From: Ruegeria sp.
GTDB taxonomy: Bacteria; Pseudomonadota; Alphaproteobacteria; Rhodobacterales; Rhodobacteraceae
NCBI RefSeq assembly: GCF_965221235.1
Contig: NZ_CBDCRS010000005.1
Span: forward strand, 48,076 to 112,075
Reading direction: 5' to 3'
Length of the DNA: 64,000 nucleotides
The notes under the pieces were generated by a model. That model was not told where the DNA came from and ran no database searches. It worked only from the letters and a program-made list of their open reading frames with translations. The stretch's first letter is position 1, and each line of letters starts with the position of its first letter. Positions 28,286-36,616 of the stretch are shown here, one piece after another. Position numbers and translations under genes: made by a program.

Positions 28286-29794
28286 ATGCCGGGGAAACCC
28301 GTCACCGACCAGCAAATGAGATTGTACATGTCCGACCGACCCTTTCATAACCAACGTGTTGCCGCAGCCCGTGCCGGTTTCAGCGAACGCACCGGGCGCA
28401 GGATTGAAGCAAACCCGGTACTGCCTTCGCAGCGCAAACCAGTCCGTGGTCGCACCGTCCCTGATCCTTTGGAGGCTGTGTGGCAGCCTATCCTGATCCC
28501 GCTCCTCGAACGGGATTCTTCCGTGCAAGCTGTGACGTTGCTCCGTCATTTGCAGATGCTGGATCCTGACGGCTTCCCCGATGATCGGGTCCGGCGGACG
28601 CTGGAACGACGGGTTCGGGAGTGGCGCGCCCTGCATGGCCCCGAGCGCGACGTGATCTTTCGCCAGTCCCCGGAGCCAGGGCGTATGGGACTGTCGGACT
28701 TCACCGATGCGACTGAACTCGGCGTGACAATCGCCGGTCATTTGCTGCTTCATCGGCTTTTCCACTTTGTTCTCGCCTACAGCGGCTGGGAGCATGCCGC
28801 GCCGGTTCTGGGCGGGGAGAGTTTCACGGCACTGGCTGAAAACCTTCAGAATGCGCTCTGGGCACTTGGGGGCGTGCCGCAGGAGAGCAGAACCGACAGC
28901 CTGTCGGCCGCGTATCGCAATCTCGACAAGGATGCGACCAGGGATGTCACCGAACGTTATGAGGCGTTCTGTCGGCACTATGGGATGGTCGCGAGCCGCA
29001 ATAATCCCGGCGAAGCCCATGAGAATGGCGCGATCGAAGCACACAACAATCATCTCAAGGTGGCTTTGGATCAGGCTCTGATCCTGCGGGGATCGCGGGA
29101 CTTTCCCGACATCGATGCCTGGCGCCGGTTTGTCGACGAAGTTGTCGCCCGCCGCAACCGCCGCCGTGAGGACAAGATAAAAGTCGAGTTGCAACACCTC
29201 AAGCCGCTGCCCACGCAGCGCACCACCGACTTCACCGAACTTGTCGTGCGTGTTGTCAGGACCGGAGGTTTCCTGGTCCACAGCGTGTTCTATTCCGTGC
29301 CCTCGCAGTTCATCGGCCAGCGCTTGCGCGTTCACGTCTATGACGACCGGATCGAAGCCTATCTCGGGGCCACGCATGTGGTCTCCCATCCCCGCATGCG
29401 CGGGCGCAAGGACGGTAAACGTATCCATAGCATCAATTACCGGCATGTCATCCATGCCCTGCGTCGCAAGCCTCAGGCTTTGGCAAATTCCGTCTATCGC
29501 GACAATCTCTTCCCCAGGTCCGAATACGCTGAGGCCTGGAACCGCCTCTCCGAGGTTTTGCCCCGCAAAGAGGCTTGCAAACGCATGGTCGATCTGCTCT
29601 GGCTGGCCCATAGCGAGAACTGCGAGGCAGACCTGGCCGCGCTGATCGCCGGGGACTTTGCAAATGGCGCATTGCCAGATGCCAAAACCCTGCGGAAACA
29701 ACTCCTTGGGTCACGCACGGAATTGCCGGAAGACCGAAAGGTCAGACTGACGGATCTGTCCAGCTTCGATCGCTTGCTGGAGGTGCGCACATGA
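28286..29794 (+). CDS. istA: IS21 DDE transposase
   Basis: Same as copy 1 except one Thr/Ala residue. Confidence 0.93.
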   Translation: MPGKPVTDQQMRLYMSDRPFHNQRVAAARAGFSERTGRRIEANPVLPSQRKPVRGRTVPDPLEAVWQPILIPLLERDSSVQAVTLLRHLQMLDPDGFPDDRVRRTLERRVREWRALHGPERDVIFRQSPEPGRMGLSDFTDATELGVTIAGHLLLHRLFHFVLAYSGWEHAAPVLGGESFTALAENLQNALWALGGVPQESRTDSLSAAYRNLDKDATRDVTERYEAFCRHYGMVASRNNPGEAHENGAIEAHNNHLKVALDQALILRGSRDFPDIDAWRRFVDEVVARRNRRREDKIKVELQHLKPLPTQRTTDFTELVVRVVRTGGFLVHSVFYSVPSQFIGQRLRVHVYDDRIEAYLGATHVVSHPRMRGRKDGKRIHSINYRHVIHALRRKPQALANSVYRDNLFPRSEYAEAWNRLSEVLPRKEACKRMVDLLWLAHSENCEADLAALIAGDFANGALPDAKTLRKQLLGSRTELPEDRKVRLTDLSSFDRLLEVRT

Positions 29795-30594
29795 CACAGG
29801 TGTCCAAACCACAAACTGTCGATGTGCACGCCTTGCCCGCCCTGTTCACCGCTTTGCGTCTGCCCAGCTTCCAGCACCACTGGGAGCGCTTCGCGCAACA
29901 GGCCGATACCGAGAACTGGCCTGCAGCCAGGTTGCTGGCCACTCTAGCCGAGATCGAATTGGCTGAGCGCGAGGAACGCCGCATTCGACGCCACCTGGGC
30001 CAATCGGGCCTGCCCGGCGGAAAAACCCTGGCCACATTCGAGTTCAAAGCCGTACCTGAGCTGTCACAAGCCCGGATCGAGGCGCTCGCAGCAGGCGACT
30101 GGGTTGAAACCGGCGCCAATCTGATCGCCATCGGAAACTCCGGCGCGGGCAAGACGCATATTCTTTGCGCCATAGGACATGCTCTGATCGAAGCCGGGAA
30201 TCGCGTCCTCTACACGCGAACAACCGATCTGGTACAGAAACTTCAGGCTGCCCGGCGAGATCTCGTGTTGGAAACTGCACTGGCCAAACTCGACAAATTC
30301 GATCTCGTCATTCTGGACGACATCACATATGCCCAGAAAGACCACGCCGAAAGCTCTGTTCTCTTCGAACTTATCGCACGGCGCTATGAAAACCGAAGCC
30401 TTGCGATCGCTGCCAACCAGCCATTCAGTGCATGGGGCAAAATCTTCCCCGACCAAGCTGTTACCGTCGCAGCCATCGACAGGTTGGTTCATCACGCCAC
30501 GATCCTCGAGATGAACTTCGAAAGCTACAGGCGACGCTCAGCTGAAAATCAACGTCGGCCAAAACAAAAATCCACCGGAAAAGCCAAAACCTGA
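29791..30594 (+). CDS. istB: IS21 helper ATPase
   Basis: Protein identical to copy 1. Confidence 0.93.
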   Translation: MTQVSKPQTVDVHALPALFTALRLPSFQHHWERFAQQADTENWPAARLLATLAEIELAEREERRIRRHLGQSGLPGGKTLATFEFKAVPELSQARIEALAAGDWVETGANLIAIGNSGAGKTHILCAIGHALIEAGNRVLYTRTTDLVQKLQAARRDLVLETALAKLDKFDLVILDDITYAQKDHAESSVLFELIARRYENRSLAIAANQPFSAWGKIFPDQAVTVAAIDRLVHHATILEMNFESYRRRSAENQRRPKQKSTGKAKT

Positions 30595-30744
30595 AGGAGA
30601 AGCAAACCAGACCATAAACACGTCATGAACTGCGGCTAAAACCGGACAACGAGGTTGTCGCTACCGGACAAAATGGTTGACGGCGTACACGCGTCTTTGG
30701 CTGAACTTCGCAAAGTAGAAGTTGATGCGCACTGCAACCTAAAG

Positions 30745-31172
30745 TGTAAAGCACACGAATTGATCTGACATTTCTGCTCTCTTTGGAGCGCAACAAGGTG
30801 TGTCGATCAGTGACAAGCATTCATGAACAGATCATCAAACCGAAACTCGGACTGTTGGAACTGGCCAAGCCGCTCGACAGCGTGAGTCAGGCGCGCAAGG
30901 TCATGGGCTATTCTCGGGACAGCTTTTACCGGTTCAGGGAATTGTACGAACAGGGCGGTGCGGGGGCGCTGATGGACTTAAGCGGCAAGAAATCGGTCCC
31001 GAAGAACCGCGTGCCAGAGCACGTGGAAAAGGCCGTGATCGAATTGGCTATTGAGAACCCGGCTCTTGGGCAGAAACGCGCCTCCTGGGAGCTTCAACAG
31101 CAGGGCATCCTAGTTTAGTCGTCGGGGTGCGGTCGAATTGGTTGGGCAATGACCGGGAGTGTGAACGATAAT
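30745..31172 (+). mobile_element. IS481-family left-end remnant with truncated transposase N-terminus
   Basis: TGT start and TTGATCTGACA motif; IIKPKLGLLELA...VSQARKVMGYSRDSFYRF...KNRV; stop at 31118 then degraded. Confidence 0.7.
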
Positions 31173-32084
31173 TGAAGCGCGATTCCTATTGACGAGCAGG
31201 GTAGGGTTGTCGACCCATTTCCTCCATCATCTTTTCCCTGAACACCTCGGCGGGTGTCGTCGATCCCAGACATTTTCAGGGCGTTGCGTTGAGGCGGTCA
31301 CAGATCATTTTCAATTCATGATCTGAGATCGCCGTGATGTCGCGCTTACGGGGAAGCCAGCGTCCGACCCTGCGATTGGTGTTTTCGATAGTTCCTTTTT
31401 GCCATGGAGAAGATGGGTCGCAGAACCACGTTTGCGTTCCGATCTCGGCTTGAAGGTGCGGCCAACTGACAAATTCGGTTCCGCGGTCGAAGGTGATCGA
31501 TTTGCGCGCCAGGTGGGGCAAGTCGCGGACGGCTTTCATGATCTTGCCCATCACGGGTTTGGTGCGCTTGTTTGGCTTCTTCTGAAGCACCATGAACCGG
31601 CTGACGCGCTCGACAAGCGACGTGACATTTGATTGTCCAAAGCGTTGTTTGAACAGAACAAGATCAGCCTCCCAGTGGCCGAACTGACGGCGATGAGCAA
31701 CGTCGTCGGGGCGAAACAGGATGCTGACGTCGCGGTCAAACTTGGGCGCTTGGCGCTTTCTTGCCCGCCGGGGGCGACGAGACTTGCGATGCTCGGGCAG
31801 ATACCACCAGAGCTCCTGGGCCATGCCTTCCTTAGAATAGATGTATTGGTAGATCCTTTCCTGACAAACGCGCAGCTTTGCACCTTCGTAGATCATCCGG
31901 TTGCCGATCTGCTCAGGTGTCCAACCTTGCTTTATCCGTGCCACGACGTTCTAACAGAGATCAGGATGACGGATCAGTTTGCGTTGTACAGATCGGCGTT
32001 TCTGCGTCTGTTGATGTTCCGCATGACGAAGTAGCCCGCGTACATTTTGGCAAACGCATCATCATCCCAGAAATTGCGTTTTAA

Positions 32085-33537
32085 TACTACAGTTGCGCAT
32101 TGAGGCGGGACTTTCGATGGGCTCTGGCAGCAGCGGCCTGATGTGTTCTTCGCCAGAGGGACCATCCGAGAATGAAGGCGTCAGAAGGGGGCGTTGGGAG
32201 AATGAGGCGCGCGATCAATCTGAGGATTTCAACGGTCGAAAGAAAGCTTGGCGTAGTATATATCTCGGTTCGCAGAAAGCCTATGCGCTGCGGCCCGTTG
32301 CCGGACTCGTTTTGTTCACTTTCCCGAATGCATTGCGGCGCTGGTCCGCGCTGAGCTTTGCCAGAAATGCGGCGGTGGCCATCACAAGGCTCATATGCCG
32401 GTGCCAGCCATGCCAGGACCGGGCCTCGCAATGGTCCAGGCCCAGATCATCCTTTGCCCTGAGAAAACACTCTTCAATAGTCCAGCGCAGCCCGGCCGCA
32501 GCGGCCAGTTCCGCCAAGGTGGTATTGGCGGGCGCATAAGCGAAGTAATAGGCTATGGAAGCGCGATCATGACGGCTCCTGCGCGCCAGAACCCATTTGA
32601 TAAACCCGTCTTTGGTCTGTTTACCGATGGGCAGACGCGCCCACTCGTAAAGGCGCGGTCCTTTCGCGCCCTCTCCGGCGGCAAGAGGTCGCCAGGCTTC
32701 GGGGCCCAGTTCTCCGGTCAGGGTGGCGGGATCGGTCTGGATGAGGTGATCGTCTTCGACAAGACGCAGTGTATGCGTGGACTTCACCGCCAATACATAG
32801 GACTGCCCGCGCTGCTCCAGCATGCGCCGGAACCCGCTGTCGGACCCGTAAACAGCATCGGCCAGCACAAAGGCGCAGGGGACACCTTCATCAAGGAGAC
32901 GGGAAACCATCGCGCGAGCCATCTGCGGCTTGGTGGCAAATCCCACCTCCTGCGGGACATGAGCTTTGGCACGGCGATCCGGATCCTCCGCCCACGCCTT
33001 CGGCAGATAGAGTTGCCGATCGATCAGCGCATGACCCCAGCGGCTCGCATAAGCGGCAAATACCCCGATCTGACAGTTCTCTACCCGCCCCGCTGTACCC
33101 GAATACTGTCGGGCAACCCCAACCGAATGCTCGCCCTTCTTCAAAAAACCGGTCTCGTCCACAACAAGAACACCTTCAGGATCGCCAAGAATGTCAACGG
33201 CATATTTGCGAACAAGGTCACACAGCGCATCGGCGGACCAGGAAGAGCGCCCCAGCAGCGACTGTATCCGATATGGCTTGTCAAAACCGGCTTCTTCCGA
33301 AAGCATCCAGCCCGTCTTGCGTTCAGCCCCCGACAGCAAGCCGTCTATGAAGGCACCCGCTGTCCGGCGCTGTTCAATACGCCGGAAGGCCGGGGCAACA
33401 AAAGACTTCAATTCTTCCAGAGACTTGCGCCAGTCAACAAGCGTTTCCCTCCAGACCGACCCCGCCATCTCCAAAACCTCCCAATTACCAGATCACCAGT
33501 AATGAATCAGAGATCAAGTCAATGCGCAACTGTAGTA
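32085..33537 (-). mobile_element. IS701-family element with TTAA target duplication
   Basis: Perfect 19-bp IR TACTACAGTTGCGCATTGA; TTAA at 32081-32084 and 33538-33541. Confidence 0.88.
32281..33474 (-). CDS. IS701 transposase
   Basis: VVDETGFLKKG, VARQYSGTAGRVENCQ, LADAVYG, RWTIEECF. Confidence 0.9.
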   Translation of the reverse strand: MEMAGSVWRETLVDWRKSLEELKSFVAPAFRRIEQRRTAGAFIDGLLSGAERKTGWMLSEEAGFDKPYRIQSLLGRSSWSADALCDLVRKYAVDILGDPEGVLVVDETGFLKKGEHSVGVARQYSGTAGRVENCQIGVFAAYASRWGHALIDRQLYLPKAWAEDPDRRAKAHVPQEVGFATKPQMARAMVSRLLDEGVPCAFVLADAVYGSDSGFRRMLEQRGQSYVLAVKSTHTLRLVEDDHLIQTDPATLTGELGPEAWRPLAAGEGAKGPRLYEWARLPIGKQTKDGFIKWVLARRSRHDRASIAYYFAYAPANTTLAELAAAAGLRWTIEECFLRAKDDLGLDHCEARSWHGWHRHMSLVMATAAFLAKLSADQRRNAFGKVNKTSPATGRSA

Positions 33538-33540
33538 TTA

Positions 33541-34594
33541 AAGCCTTTCGAGATTAGTTTGCAACATATCCTGCGGCCTTGAAGTAGTTCCAGCACTCTG
33601 TTGGATCGTAGAGATCGCAGATTGATCCGATAGCCTCGAAGACTTCGGTGAAGGTTCTCGCCCCGATCCGTCTCAAATGGGCTTTCAGTTTTGAGAAAGC
33701 TAGTTCGATGGGGTTCAGGTCGGGCGAGTATGGTGGCAGGTAGAGAAACCAACATCCATGGTCACGCAGGGCCTGTGCTGCCTCTTTGTTCCGGTGCGTG
33801 GCTAGGTTGTCGAGGATGACGACAGTGCCGGGCGCTATTTCCTTGACGAGGACTTCTCGGATGTAGGCGGCGAATGCCGGGCCATCCATTGCGCCCTTGA
33901 TGACCCACGGCGCGATCAACGCGTCCTGAGTCAGCCCCGCGATCAGCGTCTGTGTACCCCAACTGCCAAACGGCGCGTCCATGGTCAGCCGTTCTCCTTG
34001 AGGTGCCCAGCCACGGAGCCGGGTGAGGTTCGTCTTTACCGCCGTTTCGTCGATGAACACCACGCGGTCCGGCATTCGGGCGATGGCTGGCGAACGATAA
34101 GCAGACCAATCGTCGCGCTGTCGTCTTACCTTGGCGCGACGGCGTTCGGTGGCCACCAGCGACTTTTTTTGTGAGTGAAGCCAAGGCGCTTCAACAATCC
34201 GGCAATGGCCGAATGATGAACAGTGATCCCCACAGCATCGGCAAGCGCATCGCGCAACTCGAAAAGGGTAATGTCGGGGTCTTGAGCTAACAACTCGCGG
34301 AAGAACCCGACATGGGGTGCCAACTTTCCGCTGCCCGGTGGACGCCCCATCGGGGCAATTTGGGCCGCGCCAGACGCGTGTATCTGGCGTCTCCAACGCG
34401 CACCGGTCGCGGCGGACACCTGAAGACGGCGCGACGCCTCCCTCCCTGACAGCCCTTCTTCGATCAAGCGCGCAAAACGATCTCGTAGTTCCTTTGGCAA
34501 CGGTGCTGGCATATTCCTGATCCTCCCAAAAAGGGTGAATCACAAATCAAACCTCAGGGGAACCCTGCCGATTCAAACTTTGCTCGAAAAGCTT
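33541..34594 (-). mobile_element. IS630-family element, two-ORF transposase joined by -1 frameshift
   Basis: TA flanks, IRs AAGCCTTTCGAG / AAGCTTTTCGAG; ORFs 34126-34512 and 33554-~34170; slippery A7G at 34163-34170; FIDET, ILDN, YSPDLNPIE. Confidence 0.88.
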
Positions 34595-34929
34595 TAGCTC
34601 GCAAAAGATCGTTGATTTGTGACGCTTCAGAACCCGCGCCATCTCGGCGACAGAGACTTTGGCGTGGCACCAGCCCTCTATTTGGCGATGTTTCTGGAGG
34701 GATAGTTGCGTGTAACGACGCACATGGCATGATCTCTCACTAGATAACATTTTGTTTTCTAACAAGAGTCGCACTTCAGAGTGGCGCGTTCCAAGCATTT
34801 GCAAGTGTTGCAACCAAGTAGAAATGTCACTGGTTTTGCAAAGCAGGAATGTCACCATAATGCGCGACGGTAGCAAGGCTTAGCAGCTCGGAGACCTCAA
34901 ATACCGCAGGGCTGAAAAGCCTTGCGGGA

Positions 34930-35346
34930 TTAGTCGTCGGAACTGTCGTAGATATCGAAGTCTATTGTCAGGCAGCGCGCGGCCAGTTCCTCCAGGGTCT
35001 CGCTTGACAGGCTGATACCTTCATTGCCTTCCGCCATGAACAAGCCGCAAAAAATGTCTGCGCGGAATCGTGTGGTAAGCTTTTTCCATATTTCTGTGTC
35101 GTCAGTGAGCTGGTCCAGAATTTCGGATATCTGGGCATCCAAGTCACCAGGTTCCAGACGCTCTGCGCGCAATCGCCAAACACCTGTTCGCGCTATTCTC
35201 TTTCATCCTGTGACCTTACCAATAATCTCTTCGCCCATCCTCTCCGAATTGGACGGCTTGCAACCAAGAAGTTTTGTAATCTCATCCGATTCCAGATCGG
35301 CGCCGAAGATACGCAAATATGCCGCCGAAGCGCTCAATACAGCCAT
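34930..35346 (-). pseudogene. DUF4279-like protein, one in-frame TGA
   Basis: 138-codon frame MAVLSASAAYLRIFGADLESDEITKLLGCKPS...G*KRIARTGVWRL...LTIDFDIY; stop at 35203-35205. Confidence 0.55.
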
Positions 35347-35414
35347 GGACTATTTCTCTCGCAGGAAATATCGCAACACAAATTAGCTATTCCGCTGCCC
35401 GCACAATTGCCTTT

Positions 35415-36501
35415 TTAGGGCGCGTTCTCGGTGGCCGACCGGGGCTCCGACCATTGGGCTTGTAACCCATCTTCTCTGAATTGGTCCTCACCCTGGGCTT
35501 TGGTGGAGCTTGTTCCTGCATCCCCTTGATATGCGCCAGCACAGCCCCCAGCGTTTGTTCTCCGTGACCGCGGCGTGGGTAACGCGCTGGTCCATATCGA
35601 AGATCCGATAGGGCAGGGACTGGCCTTTCCAGCGCACCTCGAACGGGCCATCGACAAAGGCATAGGTTTCCACGAATTTACCAACCAGGCCGAGTGACGT
35701 CTCAATTCCTTGATGAGTTGATCCTGAAGCGTGCGGTTGGCACGTTCGATACGACCTTTGGCCTGCGAGCTGTTCGCGCACAGAATCTCAATGTTTAGCT
35801 CGTTCAGGGCACGGCCGAATTGGGTCATGCCAGCGCCGCCTTTGGCATCTTCCTTGGCCACACGAAACACCGTGTGTTTGTCGCTGTAGAACGCTACCGG
35901 CCGACCATGTTTATGAAGATAGCTCTCAAGCGCTTCGAAGTAGCTTAAGGTGCTTTCCGCCTTCACAAAGCGAAGCTCCATCAAGGTGCTGGTGGCGTCA
36001 TCGACGAAGATGAGCAGGGTGCAGGGATCGCCTCGATCCTCAAACCAGCGGTGGTCGGAGCCGTCAATCTGGATCAATTCCCCGTAGCATTCCCGCCGCA
36101 GGCGCGGCTGATGGAATGTTCGGCGCTGCTTGCGAGATAGCCAGGTTCGATCTTCCACCATCCATTTGCGCAAAGTCTCACGCGAAACCTTGAAGCCGTG
36201 ATGCTCAGCTAACTTCTCTGCGGCCAATGTCGGCCCGAAATCGGAATAACTCTCTTTGACCAACGCCAAGACGTAATCGCGCTTCGCTCTGTGAATCGGA
36301 TTGTTAGGAGGTTTGCCGCGGGCCTTGTGCTGGATCGCAGTTGCGCCGACCAAAACGTTAGCGCTTCAGTAGCCGAAACACCTGGCGCCGCGTCAAGTCC
36401 AGCAGGTTCGCAGCATTATCTACCATCAAGCGGCCATCATCGACCTGTGCCATTACTTCCACACGATTCAATTCGAGCTCGCTCATCATCACCCAACCCA
36501 T
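35415..36501 (-). pseudogene. IS1202/ISNCY transposase, degraded
   Basis: MGWVMMSERE...LLKR* N-terminus, FGPTLAAEKL, QIDGSDH, VDDATS, YSDKH, KGRIER; stop near 36358 and an apparent internal deletion near 35700. Confidence 0.8.
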
Positions 36502-36588
36502 GCTCGATCTTCCTAGTTTTGTTATAAGAGGAGAGTGACATTCCTGAATTGCTCATGGGTGACACTTTAGCTTTGCGGTCACAGCAAG

Positions 36589-36616
36589 ATATCTTATAAT
36601 CTTAATTATGTTAAAT
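36589..36616. other. dif-like XerC/XerD recombination site
   Basis: ATATCTTATAA-TCTTAA-TTATGTTAAAT: 11-6-11 layout; right arm identical to the E. coli dif XerD arm. Confidence 0.75.

Follow-up and report, generated by a model that had tools for sequence, protein, structure and literature searches.

The stretch of Ruegeria sp. DNA analysed here (the window, 64,000 nucleotides) lies on C5, a 302,742-bp replicon (a 303-kb plasmid) of an assembly that also comprises a 3.48-Mb chromosome and replicons of 592, 82 and 13 kb. Positions 34806-36583 of the window are occupied by an IS1202-family insertion sequence (IS) of 1778 bp which, on direct reading, starts with TGT, ends with ACA and is flanked by a 5-bp duplication, GCAAG, whose copies at 34801-34805 and 36584-36588 are identical; an earlier interpretation made without database searches (the sequence-only reading) had proposed this element, its TGT/TGTCAC ends and its duplication, and all are confirmed at these coordinates. 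The two ends are imperfect inverted repeats that align over ~50 bp, and each contains TGTCAC motifs at positions 20-25 and about 44-50. Since the transposase gene lies on the minus strand, the dif-proximal end is the left inverted repeat (IRL, 36534-36583, minus strand; TGTGACCGCAAAG..., with C at position 9 and TGTCAC at 36559-36564 and 36535-36540), the features of which agree with those given by Siguier et al. (bioRxiv 10.1101/2022.12.17.520857). The right inverted repeat (IRR, 34806-34855, minus strand), whose outer end reads TGT on the plus strand and which holds TGTCAC at 34825-34830 and 34850-34855, aligns with the family IRR consensus ...GGTGACATTCCTGCTTTGCAAA..GTGACATTTCTACTTGGTTGCAACA with a score of 92. 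Inward of the IRR, all on the minus strand, lie a conserved hairpin with a 13-bp interrupted stem and a 19-nt loop, TGCGGTATTTGAGGTCTCC (34873-34925), a passenger pseudogene of 138 codons belonging to DUF4279, the FdL-Imm5 immunity-type family (34930-35346), and a transposase pseudogene (35387-36501). Outside the IRL is a dif-like Xer site (36589-36616, plus strand) made up of a XerC arm ATATCTTATAA (36589-36599), the centre TCTTAA (36600-36605) and a XerD arm TTATGTTAAAT (36606-36616); the second GCAAG directly abuts ATATCTTATAA, so that the duplicated 5 bp are, as had been claimed, all that separates the element from the XerC-side arm.

The transposase gene was delimited from three-frame translations, tblastn, alignment to an intact relative (L027, a 2002-bp IS of Ruegeria sp. 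A3M17) and its match to a family model. The stitched remnant matches NCBIfam NF033594 (ISNCY_2 / ISNCY family transposase) with E = 1.3e-109, and the motifs IQIDGSDH, FVDDATS, FYSDKH and GRIERANRTLQ are legible in frame 2, with Q seven residues after E; this DDE triad with two extra conserved D residues and a Q signature corresponds to the family signature quoted by Siguier et al. In place of a single intact transposase open reading frame (ORF) of 400-500 amino acids, the window copy has two 1-nt frameshifts and a 232-bp deletion: compared with L027, there is an additional nucleotide near 36355, the deletion near 35696, which removes residues ~268-343, and a missing nucleotide near 35551, and tblastn with the intact relative as query yields four pieces, each in a frame other than that of its neighbour (residues 1-47, 52-267, 344-394 and 395-448). 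Over their whole lengths, L027 and the window element align with 77.5% nucleotide identity, and their genes follow in the same order; the greater length of L027 is due to the 232-bp deletion in the window copy. A genome-wide search of the host recovered no other copies or relatives of this transposase, and with no helper copy and a broken transposase the element is now immobile; the window copy is a dead fossil, and a member of its subgroup (see below) by descent.

The passenger sits between the transposase gene and the IRR, inside the inverted repeats, and matches Pfam PF14106 over the full profile length (E = 2.5e-21), with an in-frame TGA at 35203-35205, codon 48 of 138. The sequence-only reading had posited a transposase and a passenger gene, and the NF033594 and PF14106 matches bear this out; that both genes are broken is newly found. 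An intact 138-residue DUF4279 protein with ~74% identity fills the same slot in L027 and in a second relative, L033, so that a passenger unrelated to transposition lies within the inverted repeats in all three elements and the proposed transporter status of the IS stands. In a survey of 401 family genomes, all DUF4279 homologues of at least 70% identity adjoin the hairpin or right end of this IS, and DUF4279 remnants with the same right end occur in three further genera. The idea that a split DUF4279 ORF is a recurrent or programmed feature was rejected, as the split in L243 is a scaffold gap of Ns; several database DUF4279 proteins are the same 80-residue C-terminal piece, and those besides L243 lie on contigs of about 1 kb or less and may be truncated. 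The TGA in the window passenger is accordingly treated as a plain nonsense mutation. One of the surveyed homologues belongs to a miniature derivative, L088 (G175:C13), where a dif-like site (TATTAACATAA TCTTAA TTAGCGGATCG) lies ~260 bp upstream of the DUF4279 gene; the order there is dif-like site, an IRL-tip TGT joined to a transposase C-terminal remnant, intact DUF4279, hairpin and a shortened IRR, making a non-autonomous, cargo-only element possible.

The C5 site has the 11-6-11 architecture of Xer sites and a perfect canonical XerD arm. A position weight matrix for dif-like sites, built from the sites that adjoin relatives of the element, gives one strong match on C5 (score 33.0), the next independent site scoring 10.8; a match of 14.2 is the same site on the opposite strand. 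Each of the three largest replicons, i.e. the chromosome (C4), the 592-kb replicon (C3) and C5, carries one strong dif-like site, and the 82- and 13-kb replicons carry none. The chromosomal site (TAATCGTGTAA TTGGTA TTATGGTAAAA) is at 3,402,796 and so coincides with the cumulative GC-skew maximum at ~3,403,000, and the C3 site (TATTCGTGTAA GCAAGA TTATGTTAAAA) is at C3:188920; neither is adjoined by an IS. Two full-length Xer-type (XerC-/XerD-like) recombinase genes are present on the chromosome. In a search for replication and partition markers, the RepC and RepA-type ParA models matched other replicons and gave no match on C5. The syntenic position in a congener (G001) holds a dif-like site (AAGCTTCATAA CAGATG TTATGTTAAAA), adjoining the 3' end of the same glycosyltransferase gene as in C5 and with no IS beside it, which serves as an empty-site counterpart. 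The C5 site is thus predicted to be the single replicon-level dif-like Xer site.

Relatives of the element were collected by a genome scan that found 554 related stretches, from which 80 loci were fetched. Intact transposases of 441-470 residues, with about 75-90% identity (about 80-90% for those of 448 residues), are abundant in Roseobacter-group genomes and metagenomes, those of Roseovarius and many other members included, and the closest relatives come from Ruegeria, Leisingera, Phaeobacter, Sulfitobacter and similar genera, in keeping with the Roseobacter-type setting that had been suggested. Targeting was examined at the 50 loci that retain the TGT left tip intact and have sufficient flanking sequence, using a fixed core pattern (..CATAA-N6-TTA..) whose background frequency at the same loci is 1e-4 per position. 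A dif-like core is found 5-8 bp outside the IRL in 44 of these, always on the IRL side, which decides in favour of the sequence-only reading a check that it had proposed, namely whether relatives also abut Xer-like sites; the companion question, whether they carry the same or other passengers, is answered by the intact DUF4279 genes of L027 and L033 and by varied passengers in 56/70 relatives. Among the 41 complete copies, exact duplications are of 5 bp in 16 and of 6 bp in five.

On sequence grounds the element is assigned to the IS1202 family and, within it, to the short-duplication, Xer-targeting ISAba32/ISAjo2 subgroup described by Siguier, Rousseau, Cornet and Chandler (bioRxiv 10.1101/2022.12.17.520857) and by Harmer, Pong and Hall (PMC10132070), as the sequence-only reading had supposed in calling it IS1202-type and ISAba32-like. 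Its ends (TGT...ACA, inverted repeats that match imperfectly, each with a further repeat on its inner side, and C as base 9 of the IRL), its GCAAG duplication, within the 5-6 bp of the subgroup, and its orientation, with the IRL exactly 5 bp from the XerC arm, agree with this placement, as does the match to NF033594. The transposase of a close, intact 448-residue relative is 71% identical to that of ISRel26, with one 1-residue gap over 433 residues; judged by alignment to this subgroup member, it has neither the ~30-residue IS1202-type nor the 5-10-residue ISTde1-type insert. According to the same two papers, subgroup members insert beside Xer sites of plasmids and chromosomes, the XerC arm lying 5-6 bp from the IRL, include alphaproteobacterial examples (ISRel10, ISRel26 and ISMex6), carry a passenger of unknown function in 5/166 published members (with tISKpn21, tISKpn65, tISKpn63 and tISRel10 among the passenger-carrying forms), and form circles typical of copy-out-paste-in in the case of ISKpn21, for which alone this is reported; both leave open whether targeting depends on Xer proteins or on site architecture (bioRxiv 10.1101/2022.12.17.520857; PMC10132070). 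Publications of 2022-23 already cover dif targeting and its geometry, the existence of members in Alphaproteobacteria and the transporter forms, so that the window element adds a dead member to a known behaviour. A literature search for IS1202 together with Rhodobacteraceae found no paper, and neither Siguier et al. nor Harmer et al. mentions Roseobacter hosts or the hairpin. The description of the element as a dif-targeting transporter IS is upheld for the targeting (44/50 relatives) and for the cargo; it does not hold in the sense of an active element, as the window copy is dead. The suggestion that its cargo was undescribed is right in that we found no description of DUF4279 as IS cargo in the literature; the claim as a whole is less new than supposed, passenger-carrying forms having already been published.

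We consider it very probable that the window element is a fossil transporter IS of the IS1202-family Xer-targeting subgroup, which landed by targeting beside the C5 dif-like site. That an ordinary IS should lie merely by chance, with no targeting, beside an AT-rich stretch resembling dif is a reading that draws on the degenerate XerC arm ATATCTTATAA, on the position of the C5 site off the skew extreme of the plasmid, and on a region that is a pile of insertion sequences (IS21, IS481, IS30, IS701 and IS630) in which insertions gather anyway; set against a perfect XerD arm TTATGTTAAAT, a site that is the only strong matrix match on C5 and is conserved in position in the congener, a behaviour published for the subgroup, and the same geometry and orientation in 44/50 relatives from different genera at a background of 1e-4 per position, it appears very improbable. 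We find it hardly credible that the element is a composite artefact, with the end at 34806 and the DUF4279 gene derived from another element or from host DNA and the actual IS being a truncated or shorter one. The transposase is indeed internally deleted, the left flank is debris of other insertion sequences and cargo-less relatives measure just ~1535 bp, yet the 34806 end matches the family IRR and is preceded by the family hairpin, L027 aligns from end to end with the same gene order, and a matching 5-bp duplication flanks exactly these ends. The sequence-only reading had itself named foreign ownership of the 34806 end as a way in which it could fail; the family IRR, the family hairpin and the passenger shared with L027 show this end to be the element's own.

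Several observations weigh against the interpretation of the locus as a whole, including its cargo. A recognisable dif-like site is missing in 6/50 relatives, and 18/41 complete relatives have no exact duplication; such missing sites and duplications have been attributed to recombination between copies (bioRxiv 10.1101/2022.12.17.520857; PMC10132070). The XerC arm of the C5 site is divergent, equalling the chromosomal arm at 7/11 positions, and the site lies at 84.7 kb compared with a weak GC-skew maximum near 154 kb (~70 kb apart). The IS1202-type element and its IS30-type neighbour could have arrived in either order. As regards the cargo, DUF4279 has been described as the FdL-Imm5 immunity family of polymorphic toxin systems (PMC9424270) and, in Salmonella, as the immunity protein predicted to accompany an Rhs-Ntox33 effector (PMC13304343), and a DUF4279 homologue on a Rhizobium plasmid stands in an array with Imm53 and Imm8 genes; it is from this family assignment that we infer an immunity role for the passenger. 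Within the element there is no toxin gene beside the passenger, which would therefore be at best an orphan immunity gene. An AlphaFold model of the protein is confident (predicted local distance difference test score, pLDDT, 90.5), and Foldseek comparison of this model with the PDB gave no match at E <= 0.001, just weak ferredoxin-like ones, and a PDB sequence search found nothing; neither a cognate toxin upstream nor CdiI-type structural likeness, either of which would mark an immunity protein, is thus seen.

A further observation on recombination concerns L045 and L046, two identical 1970-bp copies on the same contig of Tateyamaria sp. 1078, whose flanks are swapped (TTACC), the right flank of one being the left flank of the other. 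The arrangement indicates that the two copies, at two dif-like sites of a single contig, have undergone recombination or inversion with each other; it exemplifies the recombination between copies by which the literature explains missing duplications.

The history of the window element can be proposed as follows. An active ancestor of ~2.0 kb, with a 448-residue DDE transposase, a DUF4279 passenger, the hairpin and two ~50-bp inverted repeats, would have inserted beside the single dif-like site of C5, probably by copy-out-paste-in, a chemistry taken from the literature. It would have done so in the family-typical orientation, with the IRL toward the XerC arm and the 5-bp duplication as sole spacer, sparing the 28-bp Xer core. 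From published work on the subgroup, the transposase may read a XerC/XerD-bound site or its architecture and not the DNA sequence, and landing at dif would follow the 'safe haven' logic advanced there. Later decay, comprising two frameshifts and the 232-bp deletion in the transposase gene and a nonsense codon in the passenger, would have left the element immobile.

The relatives carry a much wider range of cargo than the window copy. Passengers are present in 56/70 (1716-4150 bp), and the other 14 are cargo-less at ~1535 bp; the passengers, found in either orientation, include a ~90-100-residue family (19 loci), a 241-residue family, DUF5071 and DMP19-like proteins, a MerR and MerT-like pair, small membrane proteins, lipoproteins and a 2.7-kb block. 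Several passengers fall into established or presumed immunity families of polymorphic toxins: for DUF4279 this is documented, and DUF5071 and DMP19-like proteins may be counted with it. The MerR-family regulator and MerT-like transporter fill the slot of the 2807-bp elements L044, L060 and L061, and the 2.7-kb multi-gene block occupies the same slot in L043 (4150 bp), so that cargo is not restricted to single small genes. Compared with a cargo-less element, both junctions of the cargo meet at the 5' foot of the hairpin, ~55 bp inside the IRR, and the junction GCC|cargo|CCCGCAAGG is common to five loci whose cargo falls into four unrelated families, L045 and L059 having the same one. Where there is no cargo, the reading frame of the transposase runs on through the hairpin, its C-terminus reading ..ASQGCDI* and its stop codon lying in the loop. 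The stem type GCAAGGCTT...AAGCCTTGC is found in cargo-bearing copies only (43/56), where it is combined with either transposase clade and either IRR tip type, and DUF4279 too is found behind both clades, indicating that parts have been exchanged between backbones. These comparisons lead us to predict that the marine relatives have a swappable cargo slot, marked by the conserved hairpin.

The hairpin is well supported by covariation. In an alignment of 61 distinct copies, 93% of cells in the 13-bp stem are paired, and 7/13 stem pairs change on both sides, with none changing on one side only (i.e. no G-T/G-U intermediates); slid controls of the stem covariation collapse. The 19-nt loop, TGCGATATNTGAGGTCTCC, is nearly invariant in the IS family, and IS1202-type lineages at 65-75% transposase identity have wholly different but perfectly paired stems around the same loop. 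A covariance model scores the window hairpin at 82.5 bits and finds it to be the only copy in the host genome. As wobble pairs are lacking, a DNA-level structure or a palindrome-maintaining process is favoured over a typical RNA, and the evidence points to the one or the other, within limits set by the few lineages available. This covariation-supported hairpin beside the right end is a new part relative to the published subgroup. Searches of Rfam with the element and the hairpin-bearing loci gave nothing relevant, and a literature search for the loop sequence found no paper containing it. Two candidate functions are unsupported: there is no T-run after the hairpin on either strand, as an intrinsic terminator would have, and no arm or R-box similarity that would make it a Xer-like or attC-like site.

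The loop also occurs outside this family, there with stems that are unrelated yet perfectly paired. Among 80 metagenome loci with the loop, 58 are IS1202-type; the largest group among the other 22 is a stem class, GATGGCGGGCGGCGC, in which the DNA 3' of the hairpin is conserved save in L127, L156 and L191, and the 5' DNA differs by locus, with a break within a few bases of the foot and the same polarity as in the IS. In the two members of this class that were inspected (L103 and L105), the hairpin stands immediately 3' of tandem TraD-family genes. An alphaproteobacterial genome, G494, contains 51 copies of the hairpin, placed in the left ends of an IS3-like element and of shortened forms derived from it; there the truncations break off at scattered points near the hairpin and give no support in that genome for a sharp breakpoint. 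The loci that bear the loop beyond the window hairpin (34873-34925) are L103-L106, L108-L122 and L123-L202. On the variable side of the traD-associated hairpin in L105 (9-1418) we also noted a 469-residue ORF with a YVDD-type reverse-transcriptase motif and no Pfam match, which may encode a defence-type reverse transcriptase.

How the slot acquires its cargo can be read in more than one way. We see an even chance that it has no dedicated capture mechanism, random insertions being tolerated between essential transposase sequence and the hairpin plus IRR, and homologous recombination shuffling the cargo thereafter; on the corresponding conservative reading, the hairpin would be an essential part of the right end, one that restricts the places at which an insertion can be tolerated. 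The left junctions scatter over ~11-39 bp at the C-terminal end of the transposase, in a tail that is dispensable, with the right junctions at the hairpin foot, passengers are found in both orientations, the elements are mosaics in which the same hairpin type and DUF4279 stand behind two clades and with two IRR tip types, and duplications are swapped between L045 and L046 in one genome, all of which such a process accommodates. It accounts less readily for the exact junction GCC|cargo|CCCGCAAGG shared by five loci with four unrelated cargo families, for a 19-nt loop that is invariant across lineages whose stems have changed completely, and for the loop marking a boundary between variable and conserved DNA beside traD in unrelated elements, which hints at an active role of the hairpin. 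Such a role, in which the hairpin would be a functional DNA-level element common to unrelated alphaproteobacterial mobile elements that marks or creates a point of gene uptake, we put forward tentatively and regard as rather unlikely. Were it true, the Roseobacter IS1202-type elements would be dif-directed shuttles with an exchangeable slot, often holding orphan immunity-type genes.

To the left of the element, the window (28286-34800) contains the IS pile, composed of an IS21 (istA/istB), an IS481 fragment and a split IS30-family element. The 5' end of the latter (34547-34790, minus strand) lies outside the IS1202-type element, and the remainder of its body, interrupted by insertions of IS701 and IS630, is found at 31276-31944; ~14 bp separate the IS30-type end (…GAGTCGCACTTCAGAGTGGCG) from the duplication. 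A similar IS30-type end substitutes for the IRL tip in six relatives (L037, L057, L064, L067, L080 and L081), and at six loci from different genera (L096, L007, L012, L014, L033 and L036) an IS30-family element lies within the first ~6-17 bp of the IRL. These IRL-borne elements end in ...CGTCGCAACGACCCTTGA (at 1290-1330 and 2380-2450 in L096), and the order on a Leisingera plasmid is dif, 5 bp, TGTAGC, IS30 and the remainder of the IRL, which suggests that an IS30-family element targets the tip of another IS. One replicon-resolution site can turn into a hotspot for IS pile-up, as on C5.

Taken as it stands, the finding brings plasmids of the Roseobacter group within the range of published Xer-site homing and makes DUF4279 one of the recorded passengers. 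More is to be gained from the survey of relatives, since most marine-clade copies carry passengers and these differ between close relatives; small adaptive genes would then have landing pads in the dif sites of chromosomes and large plasmids. A hairpin at the cargo junction that recurs in unrelated mobile elements provides a testable handle on gene acquisition by slots. The main interest accordingly lies in the family-level cargo slot and the unexplained hairpin, and less in the dead copy.

Comparison with known systems places the element closest to ISRel26 (Rhizobium), its nearest named relative, with which it shares 71% transposase identity (via the intact relative), the left tip TGTAGCCGCAAAG and, beyond the IRL, a dif-like site at a distance of 5 bp (one copy, and Table 8 of Harmer et al., PMC10132070). 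ISRel26 differs in being cargo-less and in its host, a Rhizobium and not a member of the Roseobacter group, and the TGCGATATNTGAGGTCTCC hairpin was not seen after its transposase gene in the one copy available, which is interrupted by ISRel9. The transporter forms tISKpn21, tISKpn65, tISKpn63 and tISRel10 resemble the window element in having one passenger ORF between the transposase gene and the IRR, 5-bp duplications and insertion 5 bp from the XerC arm. They differ in that ISKpn21 has ~49% transposase identity to the close intact relative of the element, and the published passengers have no Pfam assignment (bioRxiv 10.1101/2022.12.17.520857; PMC10132070), whereas the window element carries DUF4279; passengers are usual (56/70) and very diverse in the Roseobacter clade, in contrast to the 5/166 of the published survey. 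ISAjo2 and ISAba32 (Acinetobacter) share the geometry, the orientation, TGT...ACA ends, second internal transposase-binding repeats and the 5-bp duplication, but have ~46% transposase identity and target the many pdif sites of dif modules, where the element has a single target site per replicon and no module. Tn7 at attTn7 and the integrative mobile elements exploiting Xer (IMEX; CTX phage) likewise land safely at a chromosomal landmark that is both conserved and essential. Harmer et al. modelled the subgroup transposase on TnsB of Tn7 (PMC10132070); unlike Tn7, the element has no TnsD-like or TnsC-like targeting protein, and, unlike IMEX, it would integrate next to dif by means of a DDE transposase, with no XerCD recombination at dif itself.

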